Source: Pseudomonadota bacterium (GTDB lineage: Bacteria; Desulfobacterota; Desulfobacteria; Desulfobacterales; JBDRRP01). Taken from it: 29,248 bases of DNA. The stretch spans positions 62,001 to 91,248 of the forward strand of contig JBDRRP010000136.1 of the NCBI GenBank assembly GCA_043825735.1, in the 5' to 3' direction. The notes under the pieces are model-generated. The model saw only the letters and a list, made by a program, of their open reading frames with translations, was not told the DNA's origin and did not search any database. Shown here piece by piece: positions 8,310-29,243 of this stretch (position 1 is the stretch's first letter; the number at the start of each line of letters is the position of its first letter). The position numbers were made by a program, and so were the translations under genes.

Positions 8310-8966
8310 TTACTTCTTCCAGCCGTCTTCGCCAATCAATTTGACAAACCGGCAGCCGCCGAGGTTGATTTTGTTTACACCGCTGTCATCTCGAACGATC
8401 TTGATCAGCTCCTGGGTGTAGTGGTCTCCTACGGGTATGACCATCCGTCCGCCGATGGCCAGCTGTTGGACCAGCGCCTTGGGGACCTGAGGGGCCCCGG
8501 CTGTGACGATGATGGCATCGAAGGGACTCTGGTCCTTCCAGCCGGTGGTACCGTCTGAAAGGTGGGTCACGATGTTGTGGTAGCGCAGCGCGTCGAAGCG
8601 CCGGCGGGCCTGCAAGAGCAAACTATGGATGCGCTCGACGGTGTAGACCCGGAAGGCGATTTCGGCCAGAATGGCGGCCTGATAGCCGGACCCGGTGCCG
8701 ATTTCCAGAACCCGGTCTTCAGGAGACAATTGCAGGGCCTGGGTCATTTCGGCCACAATGAAGGGCTGGGAAATGGTCTGCTGCTCGCCGATGGGCAGGG
8801 GATAGTCTCCGTAGGCCTGATCGGCCAGGGCTTCACTCACGAAGCGGTGCCGGGGCACTTTGGCCATTGCCGCCAGAACGCGGGCATCGGTAATGCCGCG
8901 CGCGGTGATCTGGCGGTTCACCATCTCTTCGCGTTGGCGCTGATATGTGAGAGAGTCCACAACCAT
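8310..8966 (-). CDS. pcm: Protein-L-isoaspartate(D-aspartate) O-methyltransferase
   Basis: [57 protein letters not shown] at 8966 with GAGG upstream. Confidence 0.96.
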
Positions 8967-9027
8967 GGCACATGCCTCTACCAATATCCCTATGGACCGT
9001 CAAGCCGCAACAATGTGTGAAAACAAC

Positions 9028-9057
9028 TTGACAACTTTTAGGGAATCTGGAAAGGAT
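9028..9057 (+). promoter_or_regulatory. Putative sigma70 promoter of the trp leader/trpEGDCF
   Basis: Perfect TTGACA at 9028-9033, about 55 bp before the leader ATG; the -10 element is poor (AAGGAT at 18-bp spacing). Confidence 0.4.
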
Positions 9058-9087
9058 TTCCGCATTGGAGAAAGGTTCACCGCCGCA

Positions 9088-9171
9088 ATGAAAGATCGCA
9101 CCACCATCTTGCCGGGTCGATTTTGGTGGTGGCGGGGCTGGCTCACGCCGCCTGCCGCCGGGCAGGGATGA
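9088..9171 (+). CDS. trpL: trp operon leader peptide, 27 aa MKDRTTILPGRFWWWRGWLTPPAAGQG
   Basis: ATG 9088 downstream of GGAGAAAGG; three consecutive TGG codons at 9124-9132 plus a fourth at 9139; followed by terminators and trpE. Confidence 0.88.
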   Translation: MKDRTTILPGRFWWWRGWLTPPAAGQG

Positions 9172-9198
9172 TCCGTTCTCTTTATTGAGATGATTCCC

Positions 9199-9230
9199 AA
9201 GACCGTGGCAGATAAAGCCACGGTCTTTTT
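9199..9230 (+). terminator. Attenuator terminator 1
   Basis: AAGACCGTGGC (9199-9209) / GCCACGGTCTT (9217-9227) perfect stem, 7-nt loop, running into TTTTT. Confidence 0.88.
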
Positions 9231-9233
9231 GTT

Positions 9234-9265
9234 GGGGGCCGTGGGAGACGGTCCCCATTTTTTTT
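9234..9265 (+). terminator. Attenuator terminator 2
   Basis: GGGGGCCGT (9234-9242) / ACGGTCCCC (9248-9256) 9-bp stem with one G-U, followed by A and 8 T (9258-9265). Confidence 0.8.
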
Positions 9266-9318
9266 ACCCATAGTGAGTGTCCATCCAGAAACGGTTTGGG
9301 CATTCAGACGAGGCGCCC

Positions 9319-10821
9319 ATGAGAATCAGGCATTTTCCGGACAAGGGCCAATTTACAGCGCTGGCGCAGCACCACAATGTCGTGCCGATATGCATCGAAG
9401 TATTGGCCGACACCGAGACCCCGGTATCCTTGTTGAAAAAGCTCCATGACGGTCGTCGCGCCATCTTCTTGTTTGAAAGCGTGGAGGGGGGCGAGCGCTG
9501 GGGGCGATACAGCTTTCTCGGTACCAACGCCAGAAGCCACATCCGCGTTTTCCGCGACGCGGTGGTGATCGAGGAAAACGGCGACACCACCCGCACCCCC
9601 CACAACGGCGATCCGCTGGCCGTGTTAAAGGCGGTGGCCGGGCGCTACCGCATGGCGGAAATGGCCGGCCTGCCGCGATTTCTGGGAGGTCTGGTGGGCT
9701 ACATGAACTACGAGATGGTCTCGTTTTTCGAGGCCATCCCCAATCGCCTGGCACCGGATACACCGCTGGCGCATTTCATTATTCCCGATGAGCTTCTGAT
9801 TTTTGACAATATCCGCCATACGCTCACGGCCGCCACCGTCGTCTTCATTGCACCGGAAGATGATCCGGGCCGGCTCTTCGATGACGCACTGGCACGCACC
9901 GAAAGTCTTCTGGCCACCATCGCGGCAACCCCGCTGATCAACGGCGACGACGTGCCGGGCCCGGTGGTGCGCATCTCGCCGGTCGTGGACGCGGAGGCCT
10001 TCCGGCAGCGCGTGCGCACGGTCAAAGACCACATTTACGCCGGAGACATCATCCAGGCGGTGGTTTCCCAGCCGTTTGTCTGCGATGCGCCCGCCGATCT
10101 GTGGATGCTCTATCGGGCCCAGCGTTTCATCAACCCATCGCCGTATCTGTTCTTTCTTCATTTCGACGAACTGGCGCTGGTGGGCTCGTCTCCGGAGGCC
10201 ATGGTGCGTCTGGAAAACCGGGTGGCCACGTTGAGGCCCATCGCCGGCACGCGACCCCGCGGGCGCAGCGAACAAGAGGATCGGGCGCTGGCCGATGCGC
10301 TGCTGGCTGACGAGAAGGAGCGGGCCGAGCATCTGATGCTCGTGGATCTGGGGCGAAACGATCTGGGGCGGATCGCCGAGACGGGTACCGTGCAGGTCAC
10401 CGATCTCATGGTGGTGGAGCGCTACTCGCATGTCATGCACCTGGTGTCCAATATCTCTTGCGATATTTTGGACGGCAAGGATGCCTGGGACCTGATTCGG
10501 GCGACCTTTCCAGCCGGGACCCTTTCCGGAGCCCCAAAGATCAGGGCCATGGAAATCATCGCCGAGCTGGAGAGCTCCCCGCGCGGTCCTTACGGCGGCG
10601 CGGTCGGGTATGTGTCTTTCAACGGCAACATGGACATGGCCATCACGATTCGTACAGCGGCGGTCACCGGCGGGAAAATGATCGTCAGGGCCGGTGCGGG
10701 GATCGTGGCCGACAGCGATCCGGAAACCGAGCGCCAGGAGACTGTAAACAAGGCCATGGCCATCCAGAATGCGCTCCAGCTTATGAGCGGCGGGGACCGG
10801 CCCGAGGGAGATCAGCCATGA
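9319..10821 (+). CDS. trpE: Anthranilate synthase component I
   Basis: ADTETPVS, LFESVEGGERWGRYSF, NPSPY, GSSPE, RPIAGTRPRG, KERAEHLMLVDLGRND, FPAGTLSGAPK; ATG 9319 after GAGG. Confidence 0.95.
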   Translation: MRIRHFPDKGQFTALAQHHNVVPICIEVLADTETPVSLLKKLHDGRRAIFLFESVEGGERWGRYSFLGTNARSHIRVFRDAVVIEENGDTTRTPHNGDPLAVLKAVAGRYRMAEMAGLPRFLGGLVGYMNYEMVSFFEAIPNRLAPDTPLAHFIIPDELLIFDNIRHTLTAATVVFIAPEDDPGRLFDDALARTESLLATIAATPLINGDDVPGPVVRISPVVDAEAFRQRVRTVKDHIYAGDIIQAVVSQPFVCDAPADLWMLYRAQRFINPSPYLFFLHFDELALVGSSPEAMVRLENRVATLRPIAGTRPRGRSEQEDRALADALLADEKERAEHLMLVDLGRNDLGRIAETGTVQVTDLMVVERYSHVMHLVSNISCDILDGKDAWDLIRATFPAGTLSGAPKIRAMEIIAELESSPRGPYGGAVGYVSFNGNMDMAITIRTAAVTGGKMIVRAGAGIVADSDPETERQETVNKAMAIQNALQLMSGGDRPEGDQP

Positions 10822-11396
10822 TCATCATGATCGACAACTACGATTCGTTCACCTACAATCTGGTGCAAGATATCCGTCAGATCGGCTATCCGGTGGCGGT
10901 GTATCGAAATGATGCCCTCAGCGTGGCGGCCATTGCGGATCTGGCCCCGCGTGCCATCGTGATATCCCCGGGTCCCGGACGCCCCGAGGATGCCGGTATC
11001 TGTCTTGAGGTCGTCGCCACTTTTTCAGGAAAGATACCGCTGCTCGGCGTATGCCTGGGACACCAGACCATCGCCCAGGCCTTCGGCGGCACGATCGTCA
11101 ACGCCCGGCGGCTCATGCACGGTAAGACATCCATGGTGACCGCAGACGGGCAGACCATTTTCAAGGGTATCAAGTCGCCCTTTCAGGCCATGCGCTATCA
11201 CAGCCTGGTGGCCGATCGACAGCGCCTTCCCGAGCAGCTTGTCGTCAGCGCCGAGTCCGACGACGGCGAAATCATGGGGCTGCGCCACCGGGAGCATATG
11301 ACCGAGGGGATCCAGTTTCACCCCGAGTCCATTATGACACCGGTGGGTAAACGGCTCATGCGCAACTTCCTGCGCATGGCCATGGTCGATCATTGA
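10818..11396 (+). CDS. trpG: Anthranilate synthase component II (glutamine amidotransferase)
   Basis: IDNYDSFTYNL, SPGPG, GVCLGHQ, RYHSL, QFHPES; ATGA overlap with the trpE stop. Confidence 0.95.
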   Translation: MIIMIDNYDSFTYNLVQDIRQIGYPVAVYRNDALSVAAIADLAPRAIVISPGPGRPEDAGICLEVVATFSGKIPLLGVCLGHQTIAQAFGGTIVNARRLMHGKTSMVTADGQTIFKGIKSPFQAMRYHSLVADRQRLPEQLVVSAESDDGEIMGLRHREHMTEGIQFHPESIMTPVGKRLMRNFLRMAMVDH

Positions 11397-11430
11397 CGGA
11401 ATCGGCGGTAGAAAAATGGGGGGAGATCAC

Positions 11431-11503
11431 CACGGAGTTCACGGAGGGCACGGAGAAAAGCAACAGGATTTGTTTTTAAAAATTTATCTCCGTGTCCTCC
11501 GTG
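11431..11503. repeat. CACGGAG-family periodic inverted repeat within the trp operon
   Basis: Three 9-bp units CACGGAGnn at 11431-11457 and inverted arm ATCTCCGTGTCCTCCGTG at 11486-11503; the same 18-mer recurs at 26346-26363. Confidence 0.85.
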
Positions 11504-11557
11504 GTTCAAATCATCTTTTGGATAGTGTTTACCGCATCACGACAAAAGGAGAAAATC

Positions 11558-12577
11558 ATGGCCTTCAAGGATCTTTTGCAGCTGATCATCAAACGGCAGG
11601 ATCTGACGTCGTCGCAGATGGCGGAGATGATCTCCGAGGTGCTTTCCGGGACCGTCACCGACGCCCAGATCGGGGCCATGATGGCGGCGCTTGCCACCAA
11701 GGGGGAGACCTATGCGGAGCTGGCCGGCGCGGCTCAGGCCATGCGGCGAAAGGCGGCGCGCATTCAGGCGCCGGGTCAGACCGTCGTGGACACCTGCGGC
11801 ACCGGCGGTGACGGCGCCAGCACCTTCAACATCTCCACCACCACAGCCTTCGTGGTGGCCGGCTGTGGGGTGATCGTGGCCAAGCACGGCAACCGGTCGG
11901 TGTCCAGCCAGTGCGGCAGCGCCGATCTGCTCGAAGCGCTGGGTGTGAAGCTGGATGTGGACCCGGAGATCGTGGAGGAAGCCCTTCAGGAGATCGGCAT
12001 CGGCTTTCTTTTCGCCCCGGTGTTTCACGGGGCCATGCGGTATGCCGCCCCGGCGAGAAAGCAGATCGGTCTCAGAAGTATTTTCAACATGCTGGGGCCG
12101 CTCACCAACCCGGCCGGCGCCAACTGCCAGCTGCTGGGGGTTTACGCCCCCGAACTGACCGAAATGTTCGCCAAGGCCCTTCAGGAACTCGGCGCCCGCC
12201 GGGCCCTGGTGGTTCACGGCCACGACGGGCTCGACGAGATTTCCGTGTGTGCGCCCACCCGGGTCTCTGAGCTGAATGACGGAATGATCAAGACCTACGA
12301 CCTGTCGCCGGAAACCTATTTCGGCGAGCCGGCCGATCCCGCGTCCATGACCGGCGGCGGCCCTGCCCAAAATGCCGACATTACCCGCCGGATTCTCACC
12401 GGAGAGACCGGCCCCCGGCGGAATGTGGTTATGTTTAATGCCGGCGCGGCGCTCATGGCCGCCGGCAAGGTCGACACGGTGAAAGCGGGCATCGCCATGG
12501 CTGCCGCCGCCATCGACAGCGGCGCCGCCATGCACAAACTGGAGGCCCTGGCGGCCTACACCCGGGAGAACGGTTGA
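11558..12577 (+). CDS. trpD: Anthranilate phosphoribosyltransferase
   Basis: DTCGTGGDG, FNIST, KHGNRSVSS, GSAD, FNMLGPLTNP, GLDEIS; ATG 11558 after AAGGAG. Confidence 0.97.
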   Translation: MAFKDLLQLIIKRQDLTSSQMAEMISEVLSGTVTDAQIGAMMAALATKGETYAELAGAAQAMRRKAARIQAPGQTVVDTCGTGGDGASTFNISTTTAFVVAGCGVIVAKHGNRSVSSQCGSADLLEALGVKLDVDPEIVEEALQEIGIGFLFAPVFHGAMRYAAPARKQIGLRSIFNMLGPLTNPAGANCQLLGVYAPELTEMFAKALQELGARRALVVHGHDGLDEISVCAPTRVSELNDGMIKTYDLSPETYFGEPADPASMTGGGPAQNADITRRILTGETGPRRNVVMFNAGAALMAAGKVDTVKAGIAMAAAAIDSGAAMHKLEALAAYTRENG

Positions 12578-13371
12578 TGGCGGCAGACATCCTATCGCGT
12601 ATCGTTGCCACAACCCGGGAGACGGTGGCCGCGGCTCAGGCCAGGCGGCCGCTGGCGGACTTAAAGGCCCGCGCTTCAGGCGCATCCCCGGTGCGGCCCT
12701 TTTTGCCCGATAGCGACCCCCGGCCGGTGTCCATCATTGCCGAGATCAAGCGGGCGTCGCCGTCAAAGGGCGACATCGCCATCGACCTCGACCCCGCTCG
12801 GCTGGCGGCGTCCTATGAGGCCGGCGGTGCGGCGGCGCTGTCGGTGCTGACCGACGCGCCGTTTTTCAAGGGCAGTGCGCTGGACCTCATGACGGCCCGG
12901 GCGGCGGTTTCCCTGCCCGTCCTGCGAAAGGACTTCATCGTCACCGAGTACCAGGTCTACGAGGCGCGCAGCTGGGGCGCCGATGCCGTACTGCTCATCG
13001 CCCGCATACTTTCCCCGCACCAGATGGCCGAGCTGTGCGCCTGCGTGCGGGCGCTGGGCATGGAACCGCTGGTGGAGATCCATACCGAAGCGGATCTGGA
13101 AACAATTCCGGGCGCGTGCGCGCGTCTCATCGGCATCAACAACCGGGATCTCAAATCATTTGACACGAGCCTGGACCGGGCCATCGGCCTTGCCGGTCGG
13201 CTGGCGCCCCACCAGGTGCCCGTGGCAGCCAGCGGCATTGCCGCCCGTGAAGACATCGCCCGAAACTTGGCCCACGGCATCCGGCATTTTCTCATCGGCG
13301 AGAGTCTGGTCAGAGCCGCCGATCCGGTGGCTTTTCTCAAAGATCTTGCCAACATCGAAGAGACACCCTGA
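12577..13371 (+). CDS. trpC: Indole-3-glycerol phosphate synthase
   Basis: IAEIKRASPSKG, LSVLTD..FF.G, LRKDFI, GADAVLLI, GINNRDL, LIGESL; TGATG overlap with trpD. Confidence 0.96.
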   Translation: MAADILSRIVATTRETVAAAQARRPLADLKARASGASPVRPFLPDSDPRPVSIIAEIKRASPSKGDIAIDLDPARLAASYEAGGAAALSVLTDAPFFKGSALDLMTARAAVSLPVLRKDFIVTEYQVYEARSWGADAVLLIARILSPHQMAELCACVRALGMEPLVEIHTEADLETIPGACARLIGINNRDLKSFDTSLDRAIGLAGRLAPHQVPVAASGIAAREDIARNLAHGIRHFLIGESLVRAADPVAFLKDLANIEETP

Positions 13372-14045
13372 TGGCGCCCAACGAGCCCCAGATAAAGATC
13401 TGTGGTCTGAGAGACCCGGACATGGCCGCCGAGGCGGCCGCCTTGGGCGCCGATGCCATCGGCTGCGTCTTCTTTGCGAAAAGCCCCCGCAACGTGTCCC
13501 CGGACACCGCACGGGCCATCCGAGCAGCGGTGCCGGACGCCGTTGGGATCATCGGTGTTTTTGCGGATATCGATTACGACGGCGCCATGTCTATTGTTGA
13601 CCGATGCGGTCTGGACGGCGTGCAGCTTCATGGGCATGAAACAGCGGAGACGGTTGCTCGGCTGCGGGGGCAGGGGCTGATCGTGCTCAAGGCCCTGTTT
13701 ACGGCCAGGGCGCCGGGAATAGACCGGGCCGGCGATTACGATCCGACGGCGTTTCTCGTGGAAGCCGGAAAGGGTCCCCTGCCCGGCGGCAACGCTGAAA
13801 CCTGGCAGTGGCAGGATGTGCGGGGCTTTTCAGAGCACCATCCCCTGGTGCTGGCCGGTGGGTTAAACGCGGACACCGTGGCCGGCGCCATCGCAACGGC
13901 GGCCCCGGACGCCGTGGACGTCAGCAGCGGGGTGGAAATCCGGCCCGGGGTCAAAAGCCTGGAGAAGATCGCCGCATTTATCGCTGCGGTGCGCCAATGC
14001 AAAGGGGCTGGCCTAAAGGGGCGGAGATTGAGGAAGGTGTTCTGA
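13371..14045 (+). CDS. trpF: Phosphoribosylanthranilate isomerase
   Basis: IKICGL, GADAIG.VF..KSPR, VQLHG.E, LAGGL, VDVSSGVE; TGATG overlap with trpC. Confidence 0.96.
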   Translation: MAPNEPQIKICGLRDPDMAAEAAALGADAIGCVFFAKSPRNVSPDTARAIRAAVPDAVGIIGVFADIDYDGAMSIVDRCGLDGVQLHGHETAETVARLRGQGLIVLKALFTARAPGIDRAGDYDPTAFLVEAGKGPLPGGNAETWQWQDVRGFSEHHPLVLAGGLNADTVAGAIATAAPDAVDVSSGVEIRPGVKSLEKIAAFIAAVRQCKGAGLKGRRLRKVF

Positions 14046-20083: not shown

Positions 20084-20845
20084 CTACCGCAAACTCCGGA
20101 TAAAAGCCTCCACTGCGCCGACGCCCTGCTCGTTCACCAGGCGGATGGTCTGGGTGCCGATGACGGCGATGTCCACCTTTCCCTTTAAAAAATCCACATC
20201 CTTTTTGTCTTTTACGCCGAACCCCAGAGCCAGCGGCAGTGCGGTGGCCTTGCGGCAGCGCTTCAGGTAGGTGTCCAGATCGTCGGAAAACTGGGTTTCC
20301 CTGCCGGTGACCCCTTTTCGGGCCACGCAGTACACGAACCCGCTGGCGTGGGAATCGATTTCGGCCATTCGGGCCTCGGGGGTGGTCGGGGCGTAGATGA
20401 AAATGGGGGAGAGATCCCGGCGCTTCATGGCCGCCAGGTAGTCGCCGCCTTCTTCCGGCGGCAGGTCGGGGACGATGGCCCCCTTCAGGCCGCGTTCGGC
20501 CATGGCATCGGCAAAGGCGTCGATGCCGTATTTGTAAAGGATGTTGTAGTAGGTCATGAACAGAAAGGGGATGTCGTGCGCCGCGGCCACGCTGGCGGCG
20601 AAATCGAGGCACTGGGCCACCCGGGCGCCGCGGGCCAGCGCCTCCTGGTTGGCCTTGAGGATCACCGGGCCGTCGGCCATGGGCTCTGAAAAGGGGATCT
20701 GCAGTTCCATGAGATCCACTCCGGCGGCCACCATAGCGGCCACGATATCGCGGCAGGCCTCGAAGCTGGGATAGCCCAGGACGATATGGGTCATGAGCAG
20801 GATGTCTTTGGTCTTCAACCGGTCACGGATATAGCTCTCAAGCAT
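20084..20845 (-). CDS. trpA: Tryptophan synthase alpha chain
   Basis: GYPS, ELQIPFSEPMADGPVI, MTYYN, IVPDLPPEE, APTT, GVTG, LGFGV; ATG 20845 overlaps the trpB end by 8 bp. Confidence 0.96.
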   Translation of the reverse strand: MLESYIRDRLKTKDILLMTHIVLGYPSFEACRDIVAAMVAAGVDLMELQIPFSEPMADGPVILKANQEALARGARVAQCLDFAASVAAAHDIPFLFMTYYNILYKYGIDAFADAMAERGLKGAIVPDLPPEEGGDYLAAMKRRDLSPIFIYAPTTPEARMAEIDSHASGFVYCVARKGVTGRETQFSDDLDTYLKRCRKATALPLALGFGVKDKKDVDFLKGKVDIAVIGTQTIRLVNEQGVGAVEAFIRSLR

Positions 20846-22064
20846 TGTAACCCTCTGCTTTCTTCCGGATGAACGCTTTCCACTCGGGATCCCCGAAGGC
20901 GTCGGCGATGGTGAAGATATCCTTGTCGCCCCGGCCGGACTGATTGATGATGATGCTGTCCTTGGGCGACAGGCCGGGGGCGTCCTTGAAGGCCTGGACA
21001 AAGGCGTGGGCCGATTCCAGGGCCGGGATGACGCCCTCCATCTGCATGGTCATCTTCATGGCTTCGATGACTTCGCTATCGGTTGCCGCGGTAAACTGCA
21101 CGCGGCCGCTTTCTCGCAGCGAGGAGAGAATCGGCGAGACGCCCACGTAGTCCAACCCGGCGGCCACGCTGTGGGTCTCCTTCATCTGTCCATCGTCGTC
21201 CTGAAGGAAAAAGGTCCGGTATCCCTGGGCGACGCCGATGCTGCCATCCTTGGATGCCAGCCGCGCCGCGTGCTCGCCGCTCTCGAGGCCCCGGCCGCCG
21301 GCCTCCACCCCCACCAGCGCGACCGGGTCGTCCATGAATCCGGTGAAAATGCCCATGGCGTTGGAGCCGCCCCCCACGCAGGCGTAGATGCGCGCCGGCA
21401 GTCGTCCTTCGGCCGATAGAATCTGCTTTCGGGCCTCCTTGCCGATGATGCTCTGAAAATGGGTCACCATCTCGGGAAACGGGTGGGGTCCGCAGGCGGT
21501 GCCCAGCACATAGTGGGTGTCGTCCATGTGGGTCACCCAGTCGCGGAAGGCCTCGTTGATGGCGTCTTTGAGAATCCGGGTGCCGTCGGTGACCGGGACC
21601 ACTTCGGCGCCGAGGCGCTGCATCCAGAACACGTTGGGCCGCTGGCGCTCCACGTCCACCTCACCCATGTAGATGGTGCAGCGGAATCCGAACTTGGCCG
21701 CCATGGTGGCCGTGGCCACGCCGTGCTGGCCGGCCCCGGTTTCGGCGATGACCCGTTTTTTGCCCATGCGCCGCACCAGCAGCCCCTGGCCCATGACATT
21801 GTTGGCCTTGTGGGCGCCGGTGTGGTTGAGGTCTTCTCGCTTGATGTAGATCCGGGCGCCGCCGAAATGCCGGGTGAGGTTTTCGGCAAAGGTCAGTGGC
21901 GTCGGCCGGCAGGAATAGGTGCTCATGAGCTGGACGTATTCCGCCCAGAAGGCCGGATCATCGCGGATCTCCAAAAACGCCGCTTCGAGTTCGTCGAAGG
22001 TGGCCACCAGCACTTCGGGCAGAAACGCCCCGCCGAAGCGGCCGAAATATCCGCGGTTACGCAT
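20838..22064 (-). CDS. trpB: Tryptophan synthase beta chain (TrpB1 type)
   Basis: GYFGRFGG, KREDLNHTGAHK (PLP lysine), AETGAGQHG, CVGGGSNAMG, GLDY.GV, IPALESAHA, SGRGDKD; ATG 22064 after GGAGG. Confidence 0.97.
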   Translation of the reverse strand: MRNRGYFGRFGGAFLPEVLVATFDELEAAFLEIRDDPAFWAEYVQLMSTYSCRPTPLTFAENLTRHFGGARIYIKREDLNHTGAHKANNVMGQGLLVRRMGKKRVIAETGAGQHGVATATMAAKFGFRCTIYMGEVDVERQRPNVFWMQRLGAEVVPVTDGTRILKDAINEAFRDWVTHMDDTHYVLGTACGPHPFPEMVTHFQSIIGKEARKQILSAEGRLPARIYACVGGGSNAMGIFTGFMDDPVALVGVEAGGRGLESGEHAARLASKDGSIGVAQGYRTFFLQDDDGQMKETHSVAAGLDYVGVSPILSSLRESGRVQFTAATDSEVIEAMKMTMQMEGVIPALESAHAFVQAFKDAPGLSPKDSIIINQSGRGDKDIFTIADAFGDPEWKAFIRKKAEGYNA

Positions 22065-22791
22065 CGGTAAATCCTCCAATGGTTTGAGAAAAGACAAACT
22101 GGTCGGTGCGGCAATACATCGCGGCGTAGACGGCGTTTTCCTTGTCGGAAAAATTGATGGTCCGGTTGACCAGCAGGATCGGCGTGGCGGCGGCCACTTC
22201 GAGCGCCGCCGCGCGCCGGCCCTGGACATAATCGATTCTGAACTGCTGCTTGCCGCCGGTGGGCCGCAGAAAGTAGTGCTCTTCCACGATCCGGCTGAGC
22301 GACTGGTGCCGCAGGTCCATGCGGTCGATGTCCCGAAAGACCGTGCTGTCTAAATAAATGTCCTCGATAAGGACGGGGCACCCTGCCACGGTGCGCAGGC
22401 GTGAAATGAAATAAGCGGGTTGACCGGTCAGCGGGTTGGCCTCGTCACCGGCGGGGACGGTCTCCAGGCGGGGGCCTTCCAGGAGCGTCGTGGTTACGGA
22501 AATGCCTTCCTGGTGAAAGGCGGCAGTGGTCCCTGCCAGCGAAAAGAGGTTCACTTCCTTGGTGGCCTGCCGGACAAAGGTGCCCGAGCCCCGGCGGCGC
22601 ATGAGAATGCGTTTTCGCACCAGAAGATCGGTGGCCTGGCGGGCGGTGGGCCGTCCGATGCCGTACGCAGCGGCGAGCTGGTGTTCCGAGGGGATCCGTT
22701 CGCCCGGCGGGTATTCGCCGCAGCGGATCTTGGCCAGCAGAATGTCCGCCAGTTGATAGTAGAGCGGCACCGGTGATTGGAGGTTGAGCAT
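22057..22791 (-). CDS. GntR-family regulator, HutC subfamily (wHTH + UTRA)
   Basis: PLYYQL, YPPGERIPSEHQLAAAYGIGRPTARQA..RRRGSGTFV; C-terminal UTRA-like pattern (ISRLR..PVLIE..YL, SL..IVE, PILLVNR, YCRTDQF); overlaps the trpB start by 8 bp. Confidence 0.92.
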   Translation of the reverse strand: MLNLQSPVPLYYQLADILLAKIRCGEYPPGERIPSEHQLAAAYGIGRPTARQATDLLVRKRILMRRRGSGTFVRQATKEVNLFSLAGTTAAFHQEGISVTTTLLEGPRLETVPAGDEANPLTGQPAYFISRLRTVAGCPVLIEDIYLDSTVFRDIDRMDLRHQSLSRIVEEHYFLRPTGGKQQFRIDYVQGRRAAALEVAAATPILLVNRTINFSDKENAVYAAMYCRTDQFVFSQTIGGFTDA

Positions 22792-23000
22792 GGTCTTGCC
22801 TCGATCGGGTTTTTGCGGTTTGCGTCCAAAACGCATCCGGCGGTGTTTTGACATCATCTCCGTCGAAACGGGACTCCGGTCTTTGACGCAGCAGCGTTAC
22901 TCCGCTTTTCAGGGGAGCGGCGGGCGCTTGCGGTAGCCGGCCCCCTGCCAGGTCTCGGTCGCGCCATCGGCGGCAGACCAAGGGGTAGGCAAAATTGGTA

Positions 23001-28296: not shown

Positions 28297-29243
28297 TGGG
28301 GTCGCACCAAGCCAAGTAGAAGTAATCACGATTAAAGATAAGAAAATACCCCCAAGAAACGGGCCAATAATGAGTTTTTTGATGCCAAAAAAGAGGATAT
28401 AGCGTTTTCATGGCCAGAGCGCATCGACATTTTGTTCCCGGTCAGGTTTGGCACATCACACATCGGTGCCACAAAAGAGAATTTTTACTGAAGTTCGCTA
28501 AAGACCGGCACCGCTATCTGCAATGGCTTTACGAAACCAGGAAGCGATACGGATTGGTGGTATTGAATTACACCGTGACAAGCAATCATATCCATTTGCT
28601 CGTCTACGATGATGCTGCCAGCGCTCCTGATGCGATCGCCAAATCGATTCAACTGGTGGCGGGAAGAACCGGACAGGAGTTCAATCAGCGCAAGAAGCGA
28701 AAAGGGGCATACTGGGAGGACCGGTACCATGCCACCGTCATCGAGGATGGCGAGCACCTGTTGCGCTGCATCGTGTATATCGACTTGAACATGGTTCGCG
28801 CCGGTGTGGTTACCCATCCCGTGCAATGGCTGCACGGCGGCTACAATGAGATTCAGGCGCCTCGGCGCAAGTGTATTCTGATCGATTACGATGCGCTTTG
28901 CAGTTTATCTGGATATAATGATTACGCAGTTTTCAAGAACGCACATCGAAAATGGGTTGATGCCGAGGTAGCAAAGGCCGGTTTGAAAAGGCAGCCCCAA
29001 TGGTCCGAGGCGATTGGCGTAGGAAGCGCATCCTTTGTTGCATCAGTGAAAGAGCAGATGAAAGCGATGGCCATAGGACGTAGCCTGAAATCGTCGGATG
29101 GGGCAGGCAGTTTCGAATTGAGGGAGGCGGTCACATCCTATAATCCCCATTTTAGGCCTGAAAAGAGCGATATTGGGCAAGAAAACACCCTGTTTTGGGA
29201 TAAAGTTTGAGCAATTATAGAGGGATAGCTTGGTGCGACCCCA
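28297..29243 (+). mobile_element. Putative ~947-bp element: RAYT-like gene bounded by 16-bp perfect inverted repeats
   Basis: TGGGGTCGCACCAAGC (28297-28312) and GCTTGGTGCGACCCCA (29228-29243) are exact reverse complements; the interior looks more AT-rich than neighbouring genes. Confidence 0.7.
28410..29210 (+). CDS. Y1 HUH transposase, REP-associated tyrosine transposase (RAYT)-like
   Basis: MAR..R..PG..WHIT.R, TSNHIHLL (HUH), G.YWEDRYHA, YIDLNMVRAG (catalytic Tyr region), HP..W; SD AGAGG. Confidence 0.88.
   Translation: MARAHRHFVPGQVWHITHRCHKREFLLKFAKDRHRYLQWLYETRKRYGLVVLNYTVTSNHIHLLVYDDAASAPDAIAKSIQLVAGRTGQEFNQRKKRKGAYWEDRYHATVIEDGEHLLRCIVYIDLNMVRAGVVTHPVQWLHGGYNEIQAPRRKCILIDYDALCSLSGYNDYAVFKNAHRKWVDAEVAKAGLKRQPQWSEAIGVGSASFVASVKEQMKAMAIGRSLKSSDGAGSFELREAVTSYNPHFRPEKSDIGQENTLFWDKV

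Follow-up and report, generated by a model that had tools for sequence, protein, structure and literature searches.

A tryptophan leader with two serial terminators and a conserved relay helix upstream of trpE: a probable double attenuator in the Desulfobacterales

The trpE leader and its alternative structures

The tryptophan biosynthesis genes studied here are preceded by a short reading frame with a run of Trp codons and by two hairpins with U-rich tails, which raises the question of how a single leader peptide might govern two terminators placed in series. The locus lies in a stretch of 29,248 nucleotides, referred to as the window, whose nearest named relatives belong to the Desulfobacterales. 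An NCBIfam scan placed a pcm gene on the minus strand (8310-8984) ahead of trpE (9319-10821), trpG (10818-11396), trpD (11558-12577), trpC (12574-13371) and trpF (13371-14045), which together occupy 9319-14045 on the plus strand; the matches of trpE, trpC and trpF were strong, yet mostly under the curated cut-offs. The gene order suggests that trpEGDCF are co-transcribed. The trpG-trpD spacer contains an imperfect inverted repeat of CACGGAG units (11428-11506, plus strand), possibly a REP-like insert, and a gene for a REP-associated tyrosine transposase is located at 28410-29210. The trpB and trpA genes lie apart from this cluster on the opposite strand (20084-22857, minus strand), behind a gene that we take to be GntR-like from our own reading of its sequence, and a scan of the genome for leaders listed no Trp leader there.

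A TTGACA hexamer at 9028-9033 (plus strand) is the probable −35 element of the leader promoter, accompanied by a weak −10 element. A promoter scan of the window called nothing near the leader; among the 134 related leaders described below, TTGACA or TTGACT occurs at most 190 nt 5′ of the first Trp codon in 124. The genome, whose completeness is estimated at 100%, gave no match to the TrpR family, and TrpR operators were rejected on this ground. A T-box or riboswitch leader was likewise rejected, as no T-box or aptamer family of Rfam matched. No Rfam family reached its gathering score in the window, the best sub-threshold match being BjrC68 (23.9 of 39 bits), which reflects two hairpins plus a U-tail, and the Trp_leader family RF00513 was missing from all nine matches up to an E value of 10. 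The region 9060-9325 folds with a z score of −3.5. Three metatranscriptome contig sets from the same study left the leader uncovered and contained only short trpE-like fragments from other organisms.

The leader ORF, designated trpL, encodes 27 amino acids by translation (9088-9171, plus strand) and carries its control codons at W13-W14-W15 (9124-9132) and W18 (9139-9141), a stretch that we call segment 1 (9124-9141, plus strand). Three consecutive Trp residues are found in just 66 of the 52,052 short ATG-initiated ORFs of the genome. Downstream follows terminator T1 (9199-9233, plus strand; −19.9 kcal/mol), which is composed of segment 3 (9199-9211) and segment 4 (9217-9227), with 11 pairs in the stem (9199-9227) and a U5-G-U2 tail at 9226-9233. 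Terminator T2 (9233-9265, plus strand; −20.0 kcal/mol) is composed of segment 5 (9233-9244) and segment 6 (9248-9257), with 10 pairs including one G-U in the stem (9233-9257) and a U8 tail at 9258-9265; the tail of T1 is thus weaker than that of T2. A terminator scan called four sites against 0.9 expected, two of them being overlapping calls of T2. An extra hairpin is predicted at about 9274-9307 (plus strand), between T2 and the ribosome-binding site of trpE.

Segments 4 and 5 can also pair with each other. This relay helix (9218-9228 with 9234-9244, spanning 9218-9244 on the plus strand) consists of seven Watson-Crick and four G-U pairs, amounts to −17.0 kcal/mol as a hairpin whose loop contains the end of the U-tail of T1, and is mutually exclusive with both T1 and T2. 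As a duplex it reaches −16.0 kcal/mol, a value matched by 146 of 20,000 random arm pairs that were combined from 231 terminator-like hairpins elsewhere or here in the genome. Inspected by eye, the window offers segment 6 a toehold of at most one base on the relay. An initial annotation of the locus had described a 27-residue ORF with a WWW-R-G-W pattern just before trpE, two U-tailed hairpins and a relay of exactly these pairs; the ORF and the relay were recovered as described, and the terminator scan and folding found both hairpins.

The antiterminator has segment 2 (9152-9161, plus strand) as its 5′ strand and 9203-9211 as the partner: 9152-9158 pair with 9205-9211 and 9160-9161 with 9203-9204, giving −12.7 kcal/mol. 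The helix proposed as a candidate antiterminator in the initial annotation is therefore present, its extent having been understated by one pair. Ribosome states were modelled as footprints on equilibrium folds of truncated transcripts. For a transcript of the window ending at 9213, the probability of 2:3 pairing was 0.99 with the ribosome at W13, 0.94 at W15, 0.31 at W18 and 0 at the stop codon, where the modelled footprint leaves 2:3 unable to form. In the equilibrium fold of the window, 2:3 forms even without a ribosome. A local hairpin at 9151-9166 (plus strand; −12.4 kcal/mol), once feared to win in every case, loses to 2:3 at equilibrium as soon as segment 3 is present (P of 0.94-0.99 for 2:3 with the ribosome on the Trp codons). 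According to the model, however, this hairpin would form before segment 3 exists and would need displacing, which is a real kinetic caveat in this genome. It is a peculiarity of this genome: only 4 of 134 leaders have a local fold reaching −10 or lower at the equivalent place. The pairing of segment 1 with segment 2, suggested for 9128-9134 and 9146-9152, fared less well: the two stretches are complementary, but their probability of pairing is about 0.001 in an unconstrained fold from 9060, in which the Trp codons pair upstream instead.

Conservation of the leader and of the relay helix in relatives

Related loci were picked via the TrpE protein and not via an RNA motif. The 229 loci comprise 30, a further 19, 80 of 119, and 100 top-ranked new genomes drawn from the 150 listed among 237 matching genomes of 301. 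An upstream region was obtained for 226 of the 229 loci (214 unique). The order set of 167 takes in entries named "delta proteobacterium" as well as a single entry under Nitrospinaceae (L041), and L060 was left out of it; 161 of its regions measured at least 400 nt. A short ORF with WW or WxW was present upstream of trpE in at least 150 of these 161 regions, a floor value since leaders of the WxxW type (e.g. L230) are missed, and the leader ORF and its Trp codons are hence conserved in relatives, as had been anticipated for a functional attenuator. A motif-free finder detected two U-tailed hairpins in 122 of these 150 leaders; of the others, 23 had one, 4 had three and 1 had none.

Pair counts were based on 151 leaders, namely the 150 plus two shorter regions and minus L145, in which trpE is not the first gene. 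Using a profile common to T1 and T2, all four arms were found in 135 of the 151, and 134 were kept; the 17 leaders outside the four-arm set include leaders with T1 only and L002, a leader from the same genus with a diverged T2 that escaped the profile. The four-arm set was selected by this motif profile, and the relatives are kin rather than independent samples, which inflates all p values. Clustering at 62% identity left 89 representatives. At least six U in eight follow both hairpins in 109 of the 134 four-arm leaders and follow hairpin 1 in 121.

Across these leaders, segment 2 pairs with the 5′ arm and the loop of T1, and the 2:3 duplex averages −19.5 kcal/mol, compared with −16.0 for cross-species combinations and −12.1 for shuffled sequences. 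The distance from the first Trp codon to the start of segment 2 is 19-27 nt in 127 of 134 leaders, irrespective of the position of the stop codon. In transcripts ending before segment 4, the probability of 2:3 exceeded 0.5 in 124 of 134 leaders when the footprint covered the first Trp codon, in 119 when it covered the last one, in 21 when it lay at the stop codon and in 56 without a ribosome, the median without a ribosome being 0.28. A duplex of the 1:2 type averages −17.6 in relatives against −16.0 for cross-species and −13.4 for shuffled combinations, which lends modest support, from sequence comparison, to a pairing of this kind across relatives.

T1 and T2 are near-copies of each other in sequence, and some complementarity between segments 4 and 5 might thus be expected from duplication. 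The mirror pair 3:6 served as a control for this, since duplication alone predicts equal pairing for 4:5 and 3:6. The mean number of pairs kept out of eight was 7.76 for T1, 7.74 for T2, 7.78 for the relay and 6.16 for the control. In 938 cells from the 134 leaders, a count that omits one column with a mostly ancestral difference, mismatches numbered 30 for T1, 35 for T2, 30 for the relay and 132 for the control. The relay was better paired than the control in 73 leaders and worse in 9 (48 against 6 among the representatives), and cross-species shuffles yielded z scores of −9.8 (relay) and −1.3 (control), the representatives taken by themselves giving −8.5 and −2.2. Changes from paired to mismatched, counted on a FastTree phylogeny of 44 full-length TrpE proteins, amounted to 11 in T1, 13 in T2, 10 in the relay and 37 in the control; a weak tree covering all 134 rows gave the respective values 24, 33, 26 and 95. 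When 87 of the 89 representatives were aligned with MAFFT, without fitting to the structure, 97.1% of the positions were paired in T1, 96.8% in T2, 97.1% in the relay and 77.6% in the control. This addresses the covariation check proposed for the two stems and the relay, and the difference between 97.1% and 77.6% indicates that the relay is not a by-product of hairpin duplication. The same alignment contains 35 double changes in the relay, a number reached by none of 500 shuffles; the control covaries slightly, with 9 of 500 shuffles reaching the observed value.

The direction of the differences between the two hairpins was informative as well. Where both stems are Watson-Crick paired but differ from each other, the relay contains G-U rather than A-C by 27:9, 41:4, 113:0 and 7:1 in the purine columns 1, 2, 3 and 8, and by 13:0, 4:0 and 11:4 in the pyrimidine columns 4, 5 and 7 (28 vs. 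4 in the latter class); column 9 runs contrary to this direction (0 vs. 4). T2 is GC-richer in the purine columns and AU-richer in the pyrimidine columns, and therefore a T2 that is simply stronger fails to explain the asymmetry. Tests of independent pairs on the tree, performed per column, were not significant (median p of 0.25 for relay column 7) and are underpowered, with at most six pairs among the results listed. In summary, the pairings 2:3, 3:4, 4:5 and 5:6 are conserved and covary in relatives, and the comparison with the control argues that the relay helix is under selection.

Variants, extra copies and wider spread

The genome contains two further leaders of this kind. A second copy on contig C64 (plus strand, about 51567-51760; L111, L158) has a Tyr/Phe-rich leader of 25 amino acids, two U-tailed hairpins and a relay, and precedes genes for a DAHP synthase and further shikimate-pathway-like proteins. 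A third copy on the minus strand of contig C27 (leader start at 179579) encodes a 16-residue leader ending in WWRWWC and has a his-like layout, with a weak U-tail behind hairpin 1 and U8 behind T2; the gene downstream is, by our own reading of the sequence, presumably a second DAHP-synthase-like gene. The 58 aro loci that we collected comprise 28 picked via the protein and 30 picked solely via Tyr codons together with T1. They contain 24 distinct four-arm leaders, the rest being duplicates, leaderless, T1-only or mis-assigned (L111, L113, L118, L335, L338). In these 24 Tyr/Phe leaders, mismatches in 192 cells numbered 2 for T1, 12 for T2, 4 for the relay and 33 for the control.

Trp leaders with T1 only occur in L019, L038, L039, L148, L152, L225 and L229, as do several such aro leaders, and T2 is therefore dispensable; in L020, L264 and L277, a short second hairpin persists without a U-tail. 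The reverse case is found in five of the 134 leaders (L022, L191, L241, L244, L285), where hairpin 1 is followed by at most four U, 2:3 is strong (−17.5 to −29.1) and the relay is kept; four of these five have a long U-run behind T2. In leaders lacking the U-tail of T1, the Trp signal could reach the terminator solely via 4:5.

A first search pattern for tandem hairpins matched 165 of 301 genomes with substantial control matches; as this pattern predetermines segment 5, the loci found with it did not enter the pair statistics. A strict pattern of segments 4, 5 and 6 had hits in 51 of 401 genomes from across the phylum, and its reversed control had none. Of 30 strict-pattern loci that were fetched, 26 had a Trp- or Tyr/Phe-rich leader ORF; L299 and L300 show a Trp codon run upstream, and L292 and L304 show neither. 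The genes downstream of these loci, which we assigned by our own reading of their N-termini, presumably encode TrpE, TrpD, TrpB2, DAHP synthases and an AroA′-like aldolase. Outside the order, Trp leaders with tandem terminators and the same arm motif were present in L060 (Sedimentisphaeraceae) and in L073-L075. The TrpE of L060 is 59% identical to that of the window, and the operon may have been transferred together with its leader. Single-terminator Trp leaders were found in L076, L077, L090 and others.

Some arrangements differ from these types. L069 and L071 (Dehalococcoidia) have two elements of a hairpin plus U-run 5′ of trpE with no convincing ATG-initiated Trp leader, and their leader type is possibly T-box-like. 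Back-to-back divergent attenuators occur in L153 and L183, where in the latter one Trp leader faces trpE and the other a DAHP synthase gene, and L179 has a divergent pair of one Trp leader and one Tyr leader.

Proposed mechanism, rival explanations and known attenuators

We propose, with a probability of roughly three in four, that the element is a ribosome-mediated transcription attenuator with two serial terminators joined by the relay helix. With plentiful Trp, the ribosome would reach the leader stop codon and mask segment 2, so that T1 (3:4) forms and terminates transcription. Segment 4 would then be locked in T1 and segment 5 left free, and a polymerase escaping T1 would meet T2 (5:6) about 39 nt further on. 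With scarce Trp, the ribosome would stall on the Trp run, and segment 2 would take segment 3 including the T1 loop before segment 4 emerges. T1 would thus be prevented, and the freed segment 4 would capture segment 5 before segment 6 is made; with 4:5 formed, T2 could not form and trpEGDCF would be transcribed. That the leader is translated, that ribosomes stall, that both U-tracts terminate transcription and that the helices fold in this order is assumed by analogy with established trp and his attenuation. Because no TrpR was matched, attenuation may carry more of the Trp control in this genome, which could plausibly explain a second lock: the second terminator would presumably lower the leak.

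The energetics put one restriction on this mechanism. With segment 3 held and before segment 6 appears, the probability of 4:5 exceeded 0.5 in 133 of 134 leaders. At equilibrium, however, the combination of T1 and T2 is favoured in the window under all ribosome states that were modelled. As soon as segment 6 exists, the relay outcompetes T2 in only 35 of 134 leaders, and T2 is the more stable structure in 98. The state permitting transcription must therefore be kinetically trapped, and the minimal toehold for segment 6 is consistent with this. The domino-like opening of both terminators envisaged in the initial annotation is accordingly backed by the covariation of all four helices, but it could operate only kinetically.

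A more tentative and rather doubtful extension is that the element acts as a kinetic-proofreading attenuator with two checkpoints, in which a stall must outlast two decisions about 39 nt apart. If the ribosome resumed translation after the polymerase had passed T1, segment 3 would recapture segment 4 (−19.9 for 3:4 vs. −17.0 for 4:5), and T2 would re-form and terminate. If true, the response would be sharper and wider than that of a single terminator, and in a large lineage the element would take the place of repressors at aromatic amino-acid operons.

Three other explanations were weighed against the double attenuator. The relay may be real, with T2 as the sole effective terminator and hairpin 1 mainly in the role of a pause hairpin or anti-antiterminator, as in the his leader (PMC10989985). 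We regard such a single-terminator cascade as unlikely: it would suit the five leaders with at most four U after hairpin 1, the C27 copy and the weaker U5-G-U2 tail of T1 in the window, but 121 of 134 leaders retain at least six U in eight at this place, and hairpin 1 is the only terminator in T1-only leaders such as L019, L038 and several aro leaders. We give very little credence to the view that T2 is an unregulated, leaky copy of T1 and that the relay complementarity is a by-product, even though T1 and T2 are near-copies, T2 outweighs the relay in most leaders (98) and the control 3:6 covaries slightly (9 of 500 shuffles). Duplication would have left 4:5 and 3:6 equally paired instead of at 97.1% and 77.6%, the asymmetry tracks G-U geometry, and a strong U8 terminator would prevent induction if it were unregulated. 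Moreover, T2's own pair is broken in 35 cells, and the relay pair is retained in 26 of these.

Equally improbable is a different purpose of the conserved arms, with 4:5 serving as a nuclease or protein site or as an mRNA-stabilising hairpin on read-through transcripts, or with the palindromes serving as DNA operators. The core sequence of the arms is indeed unusually conserved for terminator stems, which would suit such a role, but this conservation follows from each arm having two partners. In addition, the loops vary widely in length, G-U exceeds A-C in the plus-strand stems (64:22 in T1 and 90:11 in T2), pointing to pairing in RNA, and the genome has no TrpR match. The serial attenuator thus remains our preferred reading.

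Several known systems, as described in the respective papers, share single features with this element. The E. coli trpL leader has a short ORF with tandem Trp codons before trpE and a 2:3 antiterminator competing with a 3:4 terminator followed by a U-tract (PMC4615214). The Trp-codon ORF upstream of trpE and the 2:3 vs. 3:4 switch are shared, whereas trpL is described with four segments, one terminator and TrpR as backup, compared to six segments, two terminators and no TrpR found here; segment 2 also lies inside a longer leader ORF here, and RF00513 does not match. The hisL leader of E. coli and Salmonella alternates between AB/CD/EF and BC/DE, with DE relaying the ribosome signal to the distal terminator (PMC10989985). 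Common to both are the six-segment cascade and a relay that joins the middle hairpin, through its 3′ arm, to the 5′ arm of the final hairpin. In the described hisL leader, only EF is U-tailed, whereas here the middle hairpin is U-tailed too and is a near-copy of the last (both U-tailed in 109 of 134), and the control codons specify Trp or, in front of aro operons, Tyr/Phe; relatives lacking the tail of T1 have the his layout.

Tandem arrangements are on record elsewhere. The ermK leader of Bacillus licheniformis is reported to be a leader-peptide attenuator with two adjacent Rho-independent terminators (PMC4335068); it is induced by antibiotic stalling instead of amino-acid starvation, and the likeness lies in the two adjacent terminators. 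The suggestion that two leader-controlled terminators are unprecedented was thus too strong, given the two reported for ermK and the his leader with the same cascade and one terminator. The rimP leader of some Gammaproteobacteria combines tandem terminators with a potential antiterminator (PMC2965389) and is described without an amino-acid leader peptide, unlike the Trp leader here. The mgtCBR leader of Salmonella contains tandem attenuators (PMC3641672), with two ORFs for two signals, whereas one ORF and one signal govern both terminators here. The element is unmentioned in the accessible parts of PMC4833913, PMC9413887, PMC2700814 and PMC8632094, and a literature search, with thin coverage of subscription papers, returned no description for this lineage.

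Three features of a classical attenuator were found, namely an ORF with control codons, a terminator between this ORF and the first gene, and an antiterminator gated by the ribosome as modelled by footprints. A 1:2 protector or pause hairpin over the control codons, a fourth feature of the class, has modest support in relatives and is disfavoured in the window. The comparative surveys of the Lyubetsky group (by Lopatovskaya, Seliverstov and Lyubetsky in 2010) are said to have predicted attenuators in delta-proteobacteria. The element belongs to the classical leader-peptide attenuators and not to RF00513, and is set apart by its two relay-linked terminators.

The compact layout could be used as a low-leak synthetic switch, and it makes a general question testable: whether serial terminators that obey a single ribosome signal have a multiplicative effect on the dynamic range or make the response sharper. 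The relatives provide a natural series of variants with T1 only, both terminators or T2 only, which suggests how a four-segment attenuator of the trp type could turn into a six-segment cascade of the his type via terminator duplication. For the bacteria concerned, the element represents a conserved regulatory RNA family without an Rfam match, which is associated with aromatic amino-acid synthesis in an order of sulfate-reducing bacteria and in other families of the phylum.
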